Shown here: one piece after another, positions 6,350-24,367 of the stretch | Position numbering within the stretch: position 1 is the stretch's first letter | Layout of the letters: every line of letters begins with the position of its first letter | Assembly: GCA_964608095.1 (NCBI GenBank) | Contig: CAZSMK010000026.1 | Span: forward strand, 70,664 to 134,663 | Source: an uncultured Candidatus Sumerlaeota bacterium | GTDB taxonomy: Bacteria; Sumerlaeota; Sumerlaeia; MWCT01; JAGHBZ01 | DNA length: 64,000 nt | Reading direction: 5' to 3' | The notes under the pieces: generated by a model | The model's input: only the letters and a program-made list of their open reading frames with translations | What the model was told of the DNA's origin: nothing | Databases searched by the model: none | Program-made: the position numbers and the translations under genes

Positions 6350-8062
6350 TTAATCTGTAGGCACTATCCGCTCGATATCCGATTCAGTAAGGTTGAGTTT
6401 CATACCCTCACTTGTCTCGATTATGACTTGCTGCCTGACACGGGTCGTAACCTTTCCCTGAATCACGTTTCCGTTGGTCAGATAGATGGTATCCCATTTC
6501 ACCGGCGTGGATGTAGGGATAACAGGCGTGAGCACAGGAGAAGGTTCTGCTATAGGTGTAGGCGGTGCAACTTCAACCTCTTCTATGGGCGTGGGTTCTG
6601 GAACAACCTCGGGTACATCGGGTTCAAGGGTCGGTGTGGTCGGCTCCTCGAACACTTCTGTCTCAAAAGGCACCGGCTCAACTGTCGGTGACGTCGGCTC
6701 CTCGAACACTTCTGTCTCAACGGGCAAGGCTTCGAGTGTGGGAGTGGTCGGTTCTTCTTCGACGACAGGCGTAACAACCAGCGTTTCCACAGGCGTGACA
6801 ACGGGCGTTTCCTCGGGTTCAGGTGGAACAAAGGTAGGATAAAGGGGCTCGCGAGGCTCGAACACGGTCTGTTTCAGCATCGACATGATCAAGTCGCGAT
6901 CGTCACGAGTGGGGTTCCTATAATTATCGAGAATTATTGCATCGGGAGACATAGCCTGGGCGCTTCTGATTTGACCGATTATGTCATCCGTAAAATTCAT
7001 CTTTCCTGCAATTGAAAACCACCTCTGAGGTTTCCAATCCAGCGATGTGACGAACTTCAACCACCCGTTGAACTTGTCCGCATCCGCGTAGTCGCGCCAG
7101 TGGTTCTTGACGCACACTATATCGACGATTCCTTCTTCAACCCATCGGGGCCAGTCCTGGAGACTTTCGGTGCACACCGGCGTTGTCTTGAATTCATCCA
7201 CACTGACCGGCGGATCGCCTTCAACATTTACCGCTATAATAATTTTTATCTCAGGGTCAGTCGCATGGGCTGCTTCTGTTATTCCACGAACGAGTTCGGT
7301 TAATCTCGAACGACGCCACTCGAGCCATGATTCGTTGTTCGGGGATGGGTTGCCTTCAAAACCCGTTTCCGCCTGGAATAACTTTACGCTTTCCGGATTA
7401 TACCCCCACGAACTCCCCGGATAACATAAACAGTCAAAGTATATCCCTTTGATGGTATAGCGCGATGTGAGTTCCTTTACCATTCCTTCGAGATAGACCT
7501 TAACACCGGGAAGTGCGGGATCGAGGTATGATTGGCGTGATTCGTCGGTCTTTTCGCCGGCGTAAGTAAGCGACAGCCACTCCCCTCTTTTCACGGCTAT
7601 ACTATTTTCAGCGGGAAAAGGATCTACTTTGCCGTCATGCACCTTGAGCACATCAAGCCATGGATAGACTTCAATAATCGGTTCTGTAGGTGGAGAGGGG
7701 AAATGAGCGAGCGTGAGAAGATCACTCAAGGGATCGATATAGTCGGAAGAAATTTTAGGTGACCGAATCTCAGTCCGGGAGATGTAATAGACCGTTCCAT
7801 TCTCCCTGACCTTTGGAACAATGAAGTGAAACCCAGCCTCGCGGGCGTCTTGAATTAATTGCGTCGAGGAACGATGATTGCTAAAATCCCGTCCTTGTGT
7901 CGTGACGAGAAGACCATACATAATCGATTGCGCATCTTTTGCAGGTGTGACCTCTTCTGACCTCACGGATTCGATGGGCAGAATAAGGCACGCCATAAAA
8001 ACGATAACGTAATACATTAAGGTGCTACCCTTGATTTTCTTCATAATCGCATTTCTCCTCAC
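6350..8062 (-). CDS. Secreted glycoside-hydrolase-like family 10 (GHL10/DUF187) protein. It has a Pro/Thr-rich repeat linker and a small C-terminal beta domain.
   Basis: It has a signal peptide. A central region (YFDCLCYP..WLEWRRSRLTELV) resembles GHL10. Three 18-aa repeats (TEVFEEPT(S/T)PT(V/L)EP..) are encoded by a 54-bp DNA tandem repeat. Confidence 0.5.
   Translation of the reverse strand: MRRNAIMKKIKGSTLMYYVIVFMACLILPIESVRSEEVTPAKDAQSIMYGLLVTTQGRDFSNHRSSTQLIQDAREAGFHFIVPKVRENGTVYYISRTEIRSPKISSDYIDPLSDLLTLAHFPSPPTEPIIEVYPWLDVLKVHDGKVDPFPAENSIAVKRGEWLSLTYAGEKTDESRQSYLDPALPGVKVYLEGMVKELTSRYTIKGIYFDCLCYPGSSWGYNPESVKLFQAETGFEGNPSPNNESWLEWRRSRLTELVRGITEAAHATDPEIKIIIAVNVEGDPPVSVDEFKTTPVCTESLQDWPRWVEEGIVDIVCVKNHWRDYADADKFNGWLKFVTSLDWKPQRWFSIAGKMNFTDDIIGQIRSAQAMSPDAIILDNYRNPTRDDRDLIMSMLKQTVFEPREPLYPTFVPPEPEETPVVTPVETLVVTPVVEEEPTTPTLEALPVETEVFEEPTSPTVEPVPFETEVFEEPTTPTLEPDVPEVVPEPTPIEEVEVAPPTPIAEPSPVLTPVIPTSTPVKWDTIYLTNGNVIQGKVTTRVRQQVIIETSEGMKLNLTESDIERIVPTD
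6590..6800. repeat. 54-bp tandem repeat (about 3.5 copies) that encodes the PT-rich linker of the GHL10-like protein
   Basis: The string cggctcctcgaacacttctgtctcaa recurs at 6641 and 6695, and degenerate copies follow. Confidence 0.7.
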
Positions 8063-16492: not shown

Positions 16493-18358
16493 ATGACGAA
16501 CCAGATTACATACGAAGGTCCGTTTGGACCGAATATCCGTATAGGAATGCTCCAGAAGCAGGACGAGATACAATTCAGCCTGATCGGCACATATAAAATC
16601 GTTACAAAAGAGGGCAAGACACTCAAGACATTTGACGATAAAAGCGGCATATTGCAATGTACTGTTGTTCAGAGTCAACCCGCGCAGCTCAAATGGCGAA
16701 TAGTCATAGCCCGCTTACGTGACCACGAAACCGCCCTTGTCCGCGCTGAAGTGACTGAACGAACCCTTGCCATCAATCATACCGAGATACTGGAAGTGGG
16801 TAGCGAGGTGGTTACAACAACGGGAAGGAGATTTGATGCCCGTGGGTTCTGGTTATGTACAGAACCTTTCTCGAGCATAGAAGAAGCACGCGAGGCGCGC
16901 TCTAAACTACCCGACTCGAGCCGATACGATATCTTGCCTGTGCGCATGAATCCCTCTTCGGGAACGCTCAAGCTGACCAGCGAAAGCAACGGGGAAAGTC
17001 TCGAAGTTAACGACAGCATCGAGCTGATACCGAAAGATGCGACTGACTCCCGGGTGGTTCTCCACGACGTGATAGTTGGCATTTCGTATCACTGGCGTCA
17101 TAAAGAGCGCCAGAAGCTACGCGGCAATCTCAGGATTATTATAGATAACGAGGGCAAACTGACCGCCATAAATATTCTCCCCCTCGAGGTTTATCTCGTC
17201 AGCGTGAACTCATCGGAGATGATGTCGGCATGCCACGACGAATTTCTCAAGGCACAAACCATTGCGGCTCGTAATATCGTTCTTGCCAATATGCACAAGC
17301 ACCATTATGCCGATGATTTCGACCTCTGTGCCGACGATCATTGTCAATGCTACAGGGGTTCGTCCCGCGAGACCGAGAAATCCAGAAAAGCCGTACTGTC
17401 TACCCTGAGTGAGGTACTGGTGTCCGGGCACGAGCTGTGCGATACGCGCTACAGCAAGATGTGCGGCGGATTGACCGCGGACTTCGATCGCGTCTGGTAC
17501 GGCGAACCGATCGAGTACCTCGTAGGTAAGTTCGACGGCGATCCTGACTCCGAAGATATCCACTTCTACCCCGCGGATACCGAACCTGCAGCACTAAAAT
17601 TTATCGAGTCCTCGCCGGATGTGTACTGTAACACTACCAGAGGGCGGATATCCCAGTCATTGAAATATTCCGCACCCTATTTTCGCTGGAATATAACCTA
17701 TAGCCGACAGGAACTTGAAAAACTCATCAACCGATTTCCAGAATATCGGGTCGGCGAGTTTCTGGATTTCGAGCCGTTGAGCCGCTCGCCTTCCGGCAGG
17801 TTGGAATATATCCTCATCAAGGGAACAGGCGGCGAAGTAATTATCGGAAAAGAGTTCGAGATTCGGCGCGTTCTTTCTCCTACGTTTCTGTACAGCGCGT
17901 GTTTTATATGGGACATCCAGCGCAACAACGGCAAAGTGGAATCAGTTACGCTCCATGGCGCCGGCTGGGGACACGGCGTCGGGTTATGCCAGATCGGCGC
18001 CGCCATGATGGCGCAACGCGGAAAAAAATACGAGGAGATTCTCGCTCACTATTATCCACAGACCTCTCGTGCAACTATTTATGAGGAAAAATATACCCGA
18101 AAATCGTTGAAAGAGCAGCTGGGTGAAACTGATTTCCGTCCCGGCGATGCCTGCTACGAATTCTTCAACTGCTATGCCGTGGCGCAATGTCCGATTCATC
18201 TCAAGAACATCCGCCTCGAAGCAAGAAAAGAAAACGATGAGTTCGTATTCGAACCTGTAAACGCCCCGGACATCAACCTGAAAAAGATGAAGATCGAATG
18301 CGATTTTCTGGACTTCGAGGAGAGCAGCGCAAGACCCAAAAAAGGCACCACCGGTTAA
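16493..18358 (+). CDS. SpoIID/LytB domain protein (amidase-enhancer-like)
   Basis: The AQTIAARNIV...DDHCQCY segment matches the SpoIID/LytB core. 621 aa. Confidence 0.65.
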   Translation: MTNQITYEGPFGPNIRIGMLQKQDEIQFSLIGTYKIVTKEGKTLKTFDDKSGILQCTVVQSQPAQLKWRIVIARLRDHETALVRAEVTERTLAINHTEILEVGSEVVTTTGRRFDARGFWLCTEPFSSIEEAREARSKLPDSSRYDILPVRMNPSSGTLKLTSESNGESLEVNDSIELIPKDATDSRVVLHDVIVGISYHWRHKERQKLRGNLRIIIDNEGKLTAINILPLEVYLVSVNSSEMMSACHDEFLKAQTIAARNIVLANMHKHHYADDFDLCADDHCQCYRGSSRETEKSRKAVLSTLSEVLVSGHELCDTRYSKMCGGLTADFDRVWYGEPIEYLVGKFDGDPDSEDIHFYPADTEPAALKFIESSPDVYCNTTRGRISQSLKYSAPYFRWNITYSRQELEKLINRFPEYRVGEFLDFEPLSRSPSGRLEYILIKGTGGEVIIGKEFEIRRVLSPTFLYSACFIWDIQRNNGKVESVTLHGAGWGHGVGLCQIGAAMMAQRGKKYEEILAHYYPQTSRATIYEEKYTRKSLKEQLGETDFRPGDACYEFFNCYAVAQCPIHLKNIRLEARKENDEFVFEPVNAPDINLKKMKIECDFLDFEESSARPKKGTTG

Positions 18359-18529
18359 TTACCAGATTCTCTGAAACACCCTTTTGAATATCTTTTCTCA
18401 GAAGCAGGATTCATCTTGGTAGTTAAAATGAAGTGACCACGCAGGGACATCACACATCTATTTCTGAAAATATCTCTTAATCTTATTAGAATCCGAGGTC
18501 AACGATCTGAGAAAAGCCGGGTGCATGAA

Positions 18530-19790
18530 GATTTTTTATATATGCCCGCTAATTATTCTACTTGTTGTATTCGTGTCGATTCGCGTTATTCGCGGGTGAA
18601 TAAATCTTTTCTCTTGCCCGCTAATTACGCTAATTACGCCAATTTTTTTTATTCGTGCCTATTCGCGTTATTCGCGGGTGCATAATTTTTTTTGCCCGCT
18701 AATCAATCTAATAGCTTCTTTTCAAAAATTACACGTTCCCATTCCAGCTGCGGGTAATGCCCAAAGTTTACCAACAAACCGAGTTTAACACCTGCAGCAT
18801 TCAGGTAATTTATTACTTGTCCGCGATGTTCATCAACAAGTTTTGAAACGGCTTTAATTTCCACAATGATGTTACCGTAACAAACAAAATCTGCTTTATA
18901 CATCTGTCTCAATCTATGATCACGATACGATATGAAAAGTTCTTTTTGTGCTTCATAGGGAATGCCTTGATAATCAAATTCAATTTGAAGACATTCCTGA
19001 TATACAGGTTCAAGAAAGCCACATCCTTTATTGTTATAGACCTCGAAACAAGCACCTATGATTTTGTAACATTCATCCTTATAGAGCAAATCCATATGCT
19101 GTTCACCATGTACGATATTATTTAATGTTAATTAGTATTTTTAATCGCGTTATTCGCGGGTGAATAAATCTTTTCTCTTGCCCGCTAATTACGCTAATTC
19201 ACGCCAATTTTTTTTATTCGTGTCTATTCGCGTTATTCGCGGGTGAATAAAGATTTTTTATATATGCCCGCTAATTACGCTAATTACACTAATATTTTTT
19301 TTGCCCGCTAATTCACGCTAATTCACCCTAATTTTTTTTATTCGTGTCTATTCGCGTTATTCGCGGGCGAATAAATCTTTTCTCTTGCCCGCTAATCAAA
19401 CTAATAATTTAAATTTTTAATCAGCGCCTATTCGCGTTATTCGTGGGTACATAATTTTTTTTCCCGCTAATTACGCTAATTACGCTAATTTTTTTATTCG
19501 TGTCGATTCGCGTTATTCGCGGGTGCATGAAGATTTTTTATATATGCCCGCTAATTCACGCCAATTTTTTTTATTCGTGTCGATTCGCGTTATTCGCGGG
19601 TGAATAAATCTTTTCTCTTGCCCGCTAATTACGCTAATTCACGCTAATTTCTTTTTCGCGCCTATTCGCGTTATTCGCGGGTGCATAATTTTTTTTGCCC
19701 GCTAATTACGCTAATTACGCTAATTTTTTTTATTCGTGTCTATTCGCGTTATTCGCGGGTGCATAAATCTTTTAATCTCGTGTGTATACT
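18530..19790. repeat. Array of about 10 imperfect ~80-bp tandem repeats, interrupted by and bracketing the GxxExxY gene
   Basis: The unit is ttattcgtgtc(g/t)attcgcgttattcgcgggtg(a/c)ataa..ttgcccgctaattacgctaattacgc(c/t)aattttttt. The string cgcgttattcgcggg recurs at about 18582, 18664, 19145, 19230, 19353, 19432, 19509, 19586, 19667 and 19750. Confidence 0.85.
18703..19095 (-). CDS. GxxExxY family protein (PD-(D/E)XK-like)
   Basis: MDLLYKDECYKIIGACFEVYNNKGCGFLEPVYQECL matches the family signature. 130 aa. Confidence 0.8.
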   Translation of the reverse strand: MDLLYKDECYKIIGACFEVYNNKGCGFLEPVYQECLQIEFDYQGIPYEAQKELFISYRDHRLRQMYKADFVCYGNIIVEIKAVSKLVDEHRGQVINYLNAAGVKLGLLVNFGHYPQLEWERVIFEKKLLD

Positions 19791-19817: not shown

Positions 19818-20837
19818 TCAGAAATGGCGGAAGGTGGTGTCGGTAACGTCGATTCTGTTCTCTTTCGCATCGACGAAGAGCAGTTCATTGGATGTCGTTA
19901 CAAGCCCGATTTGACTGACACGGGTTTCAGGGCAGTGGCGCCGAAAAAGGTTGCTTACCTCAACCGGATCAGCTGATGTGGTGAAGAGCAGTTCATAGTC
20001 CTCGCCGCCGAAAAGTGCATAGTCCATCGCTTGTTTTCCTTGTTCCCGGCAATACTGCTCGAGCTCGTTCGATATGGGAAGGTTCTGAACAAAGACCTTG
20101 ATCCCCACCGTGCTGAACCGCTTGATCAATCCCAGCTCGTTATGCACGCCGTCGCTTATATCAATCATCGCAGGATCAGTGAGGTGTGTGACTATGGCTC
20201 TGCCTTCTGAAATCCGCGCCACAGGCATAAGGTGACGATGTACAAGATATGTTTCGACAGCTCCAGCGCCATAATTTATTTTACTCTGTAAGATTTTAAG
20301 GCCTGCCGCGGAGTCCCCGACAGTACCGGTGACATAGACATGGTGCCCGGGTTTTGCGGCGCTTCGTAACGGAAGAGGCTCGGATTTCGGTTTTTTTCCT
20401 ACAAGCATGACCGTAATCACCAGTCGCTCGCTCCTGACCGTGTCGCCGTTTACGAGCGCCACTTTGTACGTTTCTCCCTCGTCTACCAATCCACGATAGA
20501 TGTCTTCAACGATCGCGATCGCCATATGTTTCGGTGCAGCCAGAGAAACCAGATAAAACTCGGGTATCCCGCCCATAGCGGCGATATCGCTCAGATTGAC
20601 TGCAAGAGATTTCCTCCCCAGCTTATAGGGATCAAAATCGTTGACAAGAAAATGCGTCCCCTCGACGAGGGTATCGAGTGTGAGGAGGACGTAATCGGAG
20701 GCGTCGGGTGCGGGATCGATAACGGCGGTATCATCACCGAATCCAAGCGCAACTCGCTTATCATCGAGGGGGTAAAATTTCTTCAATCGGTCAAGCAATC
20801 CCCATTCGCCAATATCGGAGAGATTCTTTTCGCTCAT
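19818..20837 (-). CDS. thiL: Thiamine-monophosphate kinase
   Basis: AIR-synthase-related fold with DDTAVIDP and the family GD motifs. Last gene of a thiE-thiC-thiL operon. Confidence 0.8.
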   Translation of the reverse strand: MSEKNLSDIGEWGLLDRLKKFYPLDDKRVALGFGDDTAVIDPAPDASDYVLLTLDTLVEGTHFLVNDFDPYKLGRKSLAVNLSDIAAMGGIPEFYLVSLAAPKHMAIAIVEDIYRGLVDEGETYKVALVNGDTVRSERLVITVMLVGKKPKSEPLPLRSAAKPGHHVYVTGTVGDSAAGLKILQSKINYGAGAVETYLVHRHLMPVARISEGRAIVTHLTDPAMIDISDGVHNELGLIKRFSTVGIKVFVQNLPISNELEQYCREQGKQAMDYALFGGEDYELLFTTSADPVEVSNLFRRHCPETRVSQIGLVTTSNELLFVDAKENRIDVTDTTFRHF

Positions 20838-23276: not shown

Positions 23277-23977
23277 TACTCGGCATTGAATAAAAATAGA
23301 TTAGTGTAGATAAGTGAAAATCCGTGGTTCGATCATTGTTTTAAAGATTTTTTATCCGGTTTTTTCGCACAAAGGGAAAAATCTTTGGGTGTCGGATCAT
23401 TTATATATATCAGCCTTTCAGGCTGAGGCTTGTGGGGGGAACGTGACCCAGGGCGAATGCCCGCCACGGCGCGTCTACGATTCGCTAAAGCGAAATCTTC
23501 GACCAGTATTTAATACCTTAATATGAATTTCGTTTTGAACTCTTGCCGGGGTCGTTCGGGTCAGAATGAAATTCTTTAAAAAAAGCACGACACCGATTTC
23601 GATTTCGATAGCGATTTCGATTATGCGCACCAATACTGTTGAAAAAGGATATGAGAAGAAATTTATTCGTGTAATTTGTGTAATTCGTTGTTGAAGAAAA
23701 GAGGGATTTTAGTTTGTAAAGAAATAAGTGTAGATAAGTGAAAATCCGTCGATACAAGCGAAATTTTCTTTATACATACTTTAACGCCGAGTCCGCAGAG
23801 AGAACCGCACGCAGAATTCGCAGAGAACTACATACAGAGACTAAAAAACTCGATAGCGATTCCGCTTTCGATTTCGATAGCGCGTACAACGCCAAGGGCG
23901 TGTACGAATGCGAGTACGAGTATGATTTGAATGACAAGCGGGGAGGGTTATTCTACAGTAAAGCGACAAGCGACTGC

Positions 23978-24046
23978 GAGTACGTGTACGTGTACGTGTA
24001 TGTGTACGTGTGCGTGTATGTGTATGTGTACGTGTACGATTAGGCG
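23978..24046. repeat. (GTACGT/GTATGT)n alternating purine-pyrimidine microsatellite, about 11 units
   Basis: The run gtacgtgtacgtgtacgtgtatgtgtacgtgtgcgtgtatgtgtatgtgtacgtgtacg. Confidence 0.85.
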
Positions 24047-24367
24047 CACGCTCACGCGTGCGAGTGATAAAGGGGAGGCTTATCCTACAGTACCGAAAAG
24101 GGGTGACAAGCGAGGACGCTTATTCTACATTTTTTTCGCTGAGGTAACAAGTTTTGAAAGCGTCCTGAAAGTGTCTCAACATCCAGCTCAAAGGCTAATC
24201 TTTTGTAGTAAAGAAGATTCGCAATGTCCTGCTGAGTCTTGTATGATGTGCTTCTCCCAATTTCGCGAATGACTCAGAATAACAAAAGAAGCTATGTAAA
24301 CTCATTGACTCATCCAACCTGACTATGATAAAAATAAATATATATTCCGGCTTTACATGATTGAGCT

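Follow-up and report, generated by a model that had tools for sequence, protein, structure and literature searches.

What kind of genetic element is formed by a tandem array of ~80-bp repeats and the small GxxExxY gene that they accompany? The locus in question lies in a 64,000-nt stretch of DNA (the window) from a contig of an uncultured Candidatus Sumerlaeota bacterium (CAZSMK010000026.1, positions 70,664 to 134,663). An initial annotation had described it as a satellite-like array, or one resembling miniature inverted-repeat transposable elements (MITEs), linked to a selfish-looking GxxExxY gene, and our results bear this description out. We favour the reading that the locus is a selfish element made of a nuclease gene and its cognate repeats, here tandemly amplified in the manner of a bacterial interspersed mosaic element (BIME), and we put its probability at about 55%. 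Such an element would be analogous to MITEs or to the pairing of REPINs (hairpin-forming doublets of repetitive extragenic palindromes, REPs) with RAYTs (REP-associated tyrosine transposases).

Hairpin units and the nuclease gene nested in one of them

The array occupies positions 18518-19781 of the window and consists of ten units of ~75-85 bp, one orphan half-unit and the GxxExxY gene, which codes for 130 aa. The initial annotation had counted about ten ~80-bp repeats, two before the gene and eight after it, and this count is upheld in the assembled sequence. The 20-mer ATTCGCGTTATTCGCGGGTG, with up to 3 mismatches allowed, is found 10 times in these positions, always on the plus strand, and not once in 100 shuffles of the sequence. 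The arm CCCGCTAAT is found 11 times in the window. Tandem Repeats Finder and a repeat search gave periods of 77-86 nt, together with higher-order periods of ~159 and ~235 nt. These results confirm that the ~80-bp repeats are real and far beyond chance.

Each unit is an imperfect hairpin. Its 5' arm holds three CGCTAAT boxes (CCCGC-TAAT-TA-CGCTAAT-T(C)A-CGCTAAT), a run of T6-8 forms the loop, and the 3' arm holds three ATTCGCG boxes (ATTCGTG-TCT-ATTCGCG-TT-ATTCGCG-GG). The two arms are imperfect reverse complements, with CGCTAATTA opposite CGCGAATAA and about three periodic mismatches, and the cores of 8 of the 10 3' arms are identical across 18 nt. The internal direct repeats and T runs (T7-8) reported previously are present as described; the sub-repeat blocks were thus recognized correctly, but their reverse-complement relation, which makes the hairpin, had been missed. 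Adjacent units are separated by linkers of three recurring types, L1 (TGAATAAATCTTTTCTCTTG), L2 (TGCATAATTTTTTTTG) and L3 (TGCATGAAGATTTTTTATATATG), which cycle as a three-unit higher-order repeat, so that positions 18510-18712 and 19512-19715 are 87% identical.

Read along the plus strand, the array opens with the last 6 nt of a 3' arm (CGGGTG) and an L3 linker, CATGAAGATTTTTTATATATG (18518-18544), identical to 19518-19546. Unit 1 (18545-18596) pairs a degenerate 5' arm, CCCGCTAATTATTCTACTTGTTGT, with the 3' arm ATTCGTGTCGATTCGCGTTATTCGCGGG, and is followed by L1 (18597-18616), which occurs again at 19161, 19368 and 19601. Unit 2 (18617-18678) has two CGCTAAT boxes and one CGCCAAT box in its 5' arm, a T7 loop, and ATTCGTG, ATTCGCG and ATTCGCG in its 3' arm; L2 comes next (18679-18694) and recurs at 19448 and 19682. 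Unit 3 (18695-19160) bears the gene. Its 5' arm is CCCGCTAATCAATCTAAT (18695-18712) and its 3' arm has two boxes (19134-19160); between them the gene, with a leader of 38 nt, takes the place of the T-run loop, a layout matching that of 10 gene-bearing hairpins from other phyla. Beyond it lie L1, unit 4 (19181-19243) and an L3-type linker (together 19161-19266), and then an orphan 5' arm of three boxes (19267-19293) with its T-run but no partner 3' arm (to 19303). Unit 5 (19304-19367) with L1 extends to 19387, and unit 6 (19388-19447) with L2 to 19462. Unit 6 is a gene-less twin of unit 3 that shares the variants CTAATCAAnCTAATA and ATTTTTAATC, otherwise private to unit 3, and it is the weakest hairpin of the array (-12.4 kcal/mol as RNA, z -1.1). 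Units 7-10, with linkers L3, L1 and L2 and a truncated terminal linker, complete the array (19463-19781) and make up the three-unit higher-order repeat together with the left block. The initial annotation was therefore right that repeats stand on both sides of the gene, but the gene is nested in a unit and does not separate two of them. Similarly, of the two units said to be lengthened by ~40 bp, one is indeed lengthened, through the orphan 5' arm, and the other is the gene-bearing unit 3 itself.

The gene is read from the minus strand (18703-19095), and the arm at 18695-18712 reaches into its last residues and its stop codon. Its product matches PF13366 (PDDEXK_3) with an E-value of 2.8e-41 and 141 bits (cut-off 22), and TIGR04256 (GxxExxY) with an E-value of 3.2e-41 and 140 bits (cut-off 35), in agreement with the family assigned to it from the letters. 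The D69, E79-x-K81 and G26-xx-E29-xx-Y32 motifs are intact and, in the alignment, invariant across 42 homologues. The AlphaFold2 model has a pLDDT of 91, and the nearest folds are Cas4 SSO0001 (E 2e-4, TM-score 0.6), followed by lambda-exonuclease/RecE cores and tRNA-splicing endonucleases. On this model the protein looks like a minimal Cas4/RecB-like nuclease core and is predicted to be active. More than 8,000 close homologues were returned, many of them ~70% identical to it; many are on contigs of less than 1-3 kb, which is consistent with flanking repeats breaking short-read assemblies, as in the contigs that carry thiL, the gene to the right of the array. A sequence search of solved structures gave no match, PADLOC gave an insignificant one (E 0.019), and PHROGs gave none. 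By tblastn, no GxxExxY gene was found in 50,697 phage records, and a scan of IMG/VR returned only two relatives. In the one survey found to list GxxExxY/PDDEXK_3, a very large family, the function stands as "Unknown" and multiple horizontal transfers are noted (PMC3424549).

Box modules and GxxExxY genes in other phyla

The initial annotation had proposed looking for the unit in other genomes, and there it is found. The species-representative genomes of GTDB were scanned for the exact 18-mer of the 3' arm, ATTCGCGTTATTCGCGGG, which occurs in at least 120 stretches, several of them from a single metagenome-assembled genome (MAG), such as six from CAWDWE01. Among the matches listed, to which the figures in this and the next paragraph refer, most carriers are Acidobacteriota (Pyrinomonadaceae, Chloracidobacterium), Planctomycetota (Pirellulaceae) and Verrucomicrobiota, and others belong to Lentisphaerae, Desulfonatronovibrionaceae, Bacteroidales and Chloroflexi. 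These genomes carry the element as a nearly perfect hairpin, TTTTGCCCGCGAATAACGCGAAT-nnn-CGCGAATAA...TTATTCGCG-nnn-ATTCGCGTTATTCGCGGGCAAAA, with folding energies as DNA of -39 to -42 kcal/mol (z -10 to -12). The distance between its arms is bimodal. Short loops of 22-106 nt (n=74) are empty, and long loops of 418-575 nt (n=10) hold a GxxExxY open reading frame (ORF) in all 10 cases and no other type of gene, the products being 51-60% identical to the protein of the window. A scan of metagenomes for the 20-mer specific to the window returned 8 single hairpins and no array, and a literature search for the arm sequence found no paper containing it.

The boxes themselves appear to be what is conserved. 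Box 3, which lay outside the search pattern, is exactly CGCGAAT in 41% of 250 arms, its common variants being CACGAAT, CGCAAAT, CGCGAAA and CGCTAAT. Between arms, the 3-nt spacer that parts box 2 from box 3 shows neither conservation nor complementarity (agreement of 0.27-0.38, the level of chance), and the 9-10-bp period puts the boxes on one face of B-form DNA. Taken together, the conservation of box 3, the chance-level pairing of the spacer and the period point to recognition of the boxes by sequence rather than to selection for a stem. A cluster of protein-binding sites, one of the options in the initial annotation, is compatible with boxes conserved in this way, although binding would be deduced from that pattern. 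Its other option, small-RNA genes, finds no support, as Rfam matched nothing in the array at the gathering threshold or even at E ≤ 1.

The association between gene and boxes extends across the family. We selected 17 GxxExxY loci by protein alone, comprising seven metagenome contigs (P0045, P0008, P0015, P0047, P0002, P0003 and P0017), two IMG/VR contigs and eight isolate plasmids or chromids, and box modules adjoin the gene in 17 of 17. A detector blind to sequence, which accepts any 7-mer present three times at a period of 8-11 nt, found a cluster beside 13 of the 17 genes, 11 of which have one on each side, and only five clusters in the 62.7 kb of the window outside the array. The box sequence is homogeneous within a cassette and tracks the cassette lineage. 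It is CGCGAAT in Acidobacteriota, Planctomycetota, Verrucomicrobiota and the window, CGCGAAA at loci L015 and L134, CACGAAT at L053, CACGAAA at L135, CACAGAGGA in Bacteroides and Bernardetia, CGCGAAG in Sphingomonas, CGCGGAT in Gemmatirosa, and ACAAATC in Prevotella. Most genes lie within a hairpin; at L130 and L133 the gene lies between two hairpins, at L145 and L149 it is flanked by direct repeats, and at L125 and L158 the order is 5' arm, gene and full hairpin. The cassettes are co-directional with the housekeeping genes between which they lie, as in fabD>gene>fabG, hisD>gene>dapB-like, ispH>gene>purD, radA>gene and ade>gene>manC. At L125, L134 and L135 the cassettes are between genes of restriction-modification or BREX-like operons (a DUF1156 methylase with DUF499; large helicase/methylase-like ORFs), and L135 carries a tandem duplication of the 5' arm together with the gene's first codons. 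This pairing of gene and repeat is described nowhere in the literature that searches on GxxExxY, PDDEXK_3/PF13366, TIGR04256, the arm sequences, and PDDEXK combined with REP brought up.

Several loci differ in ways that are expected of mobile DNA. Sphingomonas parapaucimobilis has a ~440-bp cassette between fabD and fabG where S. paeninsulae has only a 33-nt spacer, an insertion/deletion polymorphism; no direct repeat is visible at the borders of the cassette, the empty-site genome being only 74% identical. Upstream of aspS, seven or eight Blastocatellia MAGs carry a cassette, with AspRS proteins 78-95% identical and GxxExxY proteins 62-93% identical. Between two of them (L001 and L015) AspRS is 94% identical and GxxExxY 63%, and the arm type changes, CGCGAAT in the one and CGCGAAA in the other. 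This replacement polymorphism indicates that one cassette has been replaced by another at a fixed site. In addition, a DUF1156 adenine methylase gene contains three triple-box hairpins in frame (L125 1110-1700, JGI 3300050581 contig Ga0531113_000311), and a GxxExxY cassette and a DUF499 gene follow it. In translation the hairpins read ...ARESRESRESRE...DSRPLASFAG..., with ...ARESRESRE... ahead of DSRPLASFAG. Some orthologues, 80-85% identical in the rest of the protein, lack the hairpins altogether; at the first site, orthologues carry zero, one or two copies, and some have one where L125 has two, a variation that shows tandem duplication in place. A further sign, based on crude ORF calls, is the position of the empty hairpins, 20 of which lie between convergent genes and 6 between divergent ones.

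Arrays are recurrent as well. In the finished genome of Prevotella nigrescens FDAARGOS_1486, a single hairpin unit lies upstream of a GxxExxY gene, and 3.3 tandem units of 120 bp, sharing 98% identity, lie downstream; as in the window, this is an array bracketing the gene, in an unrelated lineage, and we count it among the signs of mobility. The Bacteroidales MAG RUG12632 carries a half-module array (L104 7560-8000) of 4-5 copies of AACCGCGAATTACGCGAATGTGGCAGGG with a period of ~37 bp, followed by at least 7 inverted copies, GACATTCGCGTYATTCGCGGTTTTAAAAGAATCG, that run off the end of the locus. A Terrimicrobiaceae MAG carries three tandem ~349-bp units, each with one complete CGCGAAT hairpin (L108 1700-2520). 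These two loci show further local amplification.

Proposed mechanism, genomic setting and competing explanations

One element consists of two inverted modules of about three 7-nt boxes each, with a period of 9-10 bp, around either a short loop or the nuclease gene. The boxes are CGCGAAT or CGCTAAT in the window and others in other lineages; the short-loop form is the empty, non-autonomous version and the gene-bearing form the autonomous-looking one. This anatomy, the association of gene and repeats across the family, the insertion/deletion and replacement polymorphisms and the recurrence of arrays are shown by the data. We infer that the GxxExxY protein binds the boxes, is an active nuclease and drives mobility. 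It would recognize the boxes of its own element and cut at or near them, and repair of the break or recombination between conserved arms could then copy, exchange or delete cassettes and their gene-less derivatives. Such a process would be akin to that of a free-standing homing endonuclease or a REPIN/RAYT pair. Unequal recombination or slippage between adjacent modules could build arrays beside the gene.

A wider generalization is tentative, and we hold it with less confidence than the reading of the locus itself. It is that GxxExxY proteins are the dedicated nucleases of a previously unrecognized group of mobile palindromic elements spanning multiple phyla, a PD-(D/E)XK counterpart of RAYT/REPIN. 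Each protein lineage would recognize triple-box arms of its own, and the elements would spread as cassettes and as gene-less hairpins, into intergenic DNA and even in frame within genes, with local BIME-like arrays. The association ties the family to a specific and recognizable DNA element, and so turns an anonymous hypothetical nuclease into a testable system. If the protein does bind and cut its own boxes and mobilize gene-less hairpins, this would be a second and mechanistically different route to the REP/REPIN lifestyle. It would account for one class of the hairpins found between genes in Acidobacteriota, Planctomycetota, Verrucomicrobiota, Bacteroidota and other phyla, and would point to one reason why contigs break, and in-frame insertions arise, in metagenome assemblies.

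Several observations weigh against the favoured reading. Binding and cutting are predicted activities of the protein, and a 130-aa PD-(D/E)XK core is not known to act as a transposase by itself. The elements showed no target-site duplication. The non-uniform arrangement of modules at L130, L133, L145 and L149 does not fit simple homing into the centre of a loop. Common ancestry, and not recognition, could account in part for the way boxes and protein diverge together, the loci of the GTDB scan were ascertained on one arm sequence, and the statistics on gene orientation rest on crude ORF calls. Within the 64-kb window, no copy of ATTCGCGTTATTCGCGGGTG or CCCGCTAAT exists outside the array. As DNA, the units of the window fold only weakly (-11 to -16 kcal/mol, z -2 to -4) because their two arms have diverged (CGCTAATTA versus CGCGAATAA), and part of the array may be decaying debris. 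Finally, the closest related genome that we found has an insertion sequence (IS), and no array, after thiL.

This last point concerns the genomic setting. The window corresponds to part of the 162.7-kb contig MLSed_10000009 of JGI metagenome 3300001533. To the left of the array, a gene for a SpoIID-domain protein (16493-18358, plus strand) is convergent with the GxxExxY gene. To the right is thiL, which codes for an AIRS-domain protein (19818-20837, minus strand) and is the last gene of a thiE-thiC-thiL operon. The GxxExxY gene shares this direction, which places units 4-10 and the orphan arm between thiL and that gene on the sense strand. The closest relative found is the Candidatus Sumerlaeota MAG JAGHBZ01 (L154), whose ThiC is 81% identical to that of the window. 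It carries a DDE transposase downstream of thiL (L154 2697-4034), at the position of the array in the window, suggesting a hot spot for insertions downstream of thiL. Some 3.9 kb away from the array, in a long non-coding region upstream of thiE, there is a solitary degenerate triple-box module with a 9-bp period, ATTCGTGTAATTTGTGTAATTCGTTG (23665-23690), one of the only five triple-box clusters outside the array. It is situated in ~0.9 kb of little coding potential upstream of the thi operon (23280-24220), which also contains a (GTGTAC/GTACGT)n microsatellite (23980-24038), CGATTT repeats and a ~22-nt direct repeat, GTGTAGATAAGTGAAAATCCGT, at ~23306 and ~23730. No thiamine pyrophosphate (TPP) riboswitch or other Rfam family was found in these 0.9 kb, even at E ≤ 1. 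Elsewhere, at 6630-6751, the window has a 54-nt tandem repeat of 2.3 copies with 81% matches.

Alternatively, the boxes might regulate the cassette in cis or serve the processing of its RNA and have no part in mobility, the array being a reiterated operator or processing site. In the mRNA the arms would pair into a stem that encloses the ORF and occludes the ribosome-binding site, a cut by RNase III might insulate the cassette from the host operon, and the protein might regulate itself through the boxes. Cassettes are co-directional and only a few nt from housekeeping genes, with scant space for a promoter of their own, a purine-rich Shine-Dalgarno region lies at or within the 5' arm's inner end, and RNA from either strand of the units can fold (-17 to -24 kcal/mol, z -2 to -4; -12 to -24 kcal/mol over all units), all of which suit such a role. 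It does not explain the dispersed gene-less hairpins, including the in-frame copies in the methylase gene, nor why seven units and an orphan arm should separate thiL from a gene without obvious regulatory need. The inner spacer is not complementary between arms, and some genes have direct rather than inverted flanking modules. We consider this explanation unlikely. A host function is slightly less probable still. Here the hairpins would be REP-like elements that serve the host as bidirectional terminators, mRNA stabilizers or nucleoid/gyrase sites, and GxxExxY genes would merely land in or beside them. Such a role accords with the position of the array between convergent genes and with the empty hairpins elsewhere, which by crude ORF calls lie between convergent genes (20) more often than between divergent ones (6), frequently soon after stop codons. 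Terminator-like sites are also found in the array, on the plus strand only (4 against 1.4 expected; weak, in three array units). On the sense strand of thiL and GxxExxY, however, the T-runs read as A-runs, and would therefore not terminate that operon. Moreover, canonical hairpins are followed by CAAAA and not by a U-run, the box sequence changes with the GxxExxY lineage even among similar hosts, and the long-loop hairpins contain no genes other than GxxExxY.

Two further explanations concern the window in particular. The array might be neutral debris, a cassette amplified by slippage or unequal crossing-over in which repeats and gene are now inactive and decaying. The systematic difference between the arm types, which yields the weak hairpins, would be expected of decay, as would the orphan arm, the 2-box arms, the degenerate unit 1 and the lack of further copies in 64 kb, and the higher-order structure is typical of unequal exchange. 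The ORF is nonetheless intact, with all catalytic residues and 70% identity to many homologues, and most 3'-arm cores have remained identical. We regard inactivity as improbable, to about the same degree as the two preceding ideas; it is compatible with the family-level explanation and differs from it only on present activity. Indeed, none of the regulatory, host-serving and decay explanations is mutually exclusive with the family-level conclusion. An assembly artefact, in which a repeat was mis-joined or mis-counted in a short-read metagenome contig, is very improbable. The count of ten units was read from one metagenome contig, and for two other runs the assemblies built from k-mers stop when they come to the first arm. 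Nevertheless, the initial annotation's concern about an artefact finds little in the data: the junction of thiL with the array is reproduced in two independent short-read assemblies, both of which end inside the first arm, and the longest exact repeat within the array is 68 bp, so that reads of at least 100 nt can resolve it. The units also differ by many private variants, and a like architecture exists in the finished isolate genome of P. nigrescens. For the left junction, an exact-protein look-up of the SpoIID-like gene gave no match.

Relation to known repeat systems

Homing endonucleases that are free-standing or of the PD-(D/E)XK type, such as I-Ssp6803I and the products of the T4 seg and mob genes of "intronless homing", offer one comparison. 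Like them, the GxxExxY gene is a small nuclease gene that is co-directional between conserved housekeeping genes and sits at the centre of a palindromic site. Presence or absence at a conserved site (fabD-fabG) and replacement at a fixed locus (aspS) are further likenesses. It differs in that its putative target is itself repeated and sometimes dispersed, in that some genes lie outside the hairpin, and in that, unlike for homing endonucleases, we know of no cleavage activity for a GxxExxY protein. Rickettsia palindromic elements (RPEs) sit in frame in protein genes without breaking them, as the in-frame hairpins of the L125 methylase do; to our knowledge they have no associated nuclease gene and are unrelated in sequence to this element. 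The ORF-containing intervening sequences of 23S rRNA also have a small ORF enclosed by long inverted arms able to form a stem, a likeness shared by the gene-bearing unit. The initial annotation had connected GxxExxY genes with these intervening sequences, a link that we could not confirm: a Pfam scan found only PF13366 and not their protein family (PF05635, 23S_rRNA_IVP), the window contains no rRNA, and no searchable paper links the two.

Regularly spaced partial palindromes may also recall a CRISPR array, which the initial annotation had correctly dismissed. There are no unique spacers, all sequence between arms being one of the recurring linkers L1-L3 or a T-run, and the locus differs further in its two alternating arm types and in the nuclease gene nested in a unit. 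That gene, the only one for a nuclease at the locus, resembles Cas4 weakly in fold, and no cas genes are present at the flanks (SpoIID-like, thiL/thiC/thiE), the rest of the 64-kb window not having been scanned for them. Integron attC cassettes and iterons were rejected, since neither an integrase nor a replication gene lies close by and there are arms to the left and to the right of the gene. For canonical hairpins at other loci, Rfam gave only spurious, sub-threshold matches to miRNA hairpins, and a promoter scan was not enriched (4 sites against 5.2 expected).

MITEs are closer, having in common with the element terminal inverted repeats, small size, gene-bearing and gene-less classes and presence/absence polymorphism. 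The element departs from them in its variable arrangement of modules; target-site duplications were not seen, and its long form encodes only GxxExxY, for which no transposase activity is known. The closest parallels are the REP/BIME clusters and REPIN-RAYT systems of E. coli and Pseudomonas (PMC3116915, PMC3337134, PMC3733652). Similar to REPs, the units are short, imperfect intergenic palindromes in multiple copies; similar to REPINs, the empty elements are inverted pairs of modules that form a long hairpin. The array resembles a BIME in that 5'- and 3'-arm types alternate, split by a T7 run and by L1, L2 or L3, and, as with RAYTs, one particular protein gene stands between repeats that are cognate to it. 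REP elements, however, have a conserved GTAG or CGTC tetranucleotide at one end (PMC3733652), and the paper on these elements includes Planctomycetes and Verrucomicrobia, where the elements are different ones. The arms described here start with GCCCGCGAAT or GCCCGCTAAT, without such a tag, and consist of three 7-nt boxes with a 9-10-bp period instead of a single stem. The repeat-flanked gene codes in every case examined for a PD-(D/E)XK protein of ~130 aa and not for an HUH/Y1 transposase, and, in contrast to RAYTs, the GxxExxY family is multi-copy in metagenomes, with cassettes exchanged between lineages. Thus, its triple-box arms and its PD-(D/E)XK partner set this element apart from REP/BIME, REPIN-RAYT, MITEs, free-standing homing endonucleases and RPEs.

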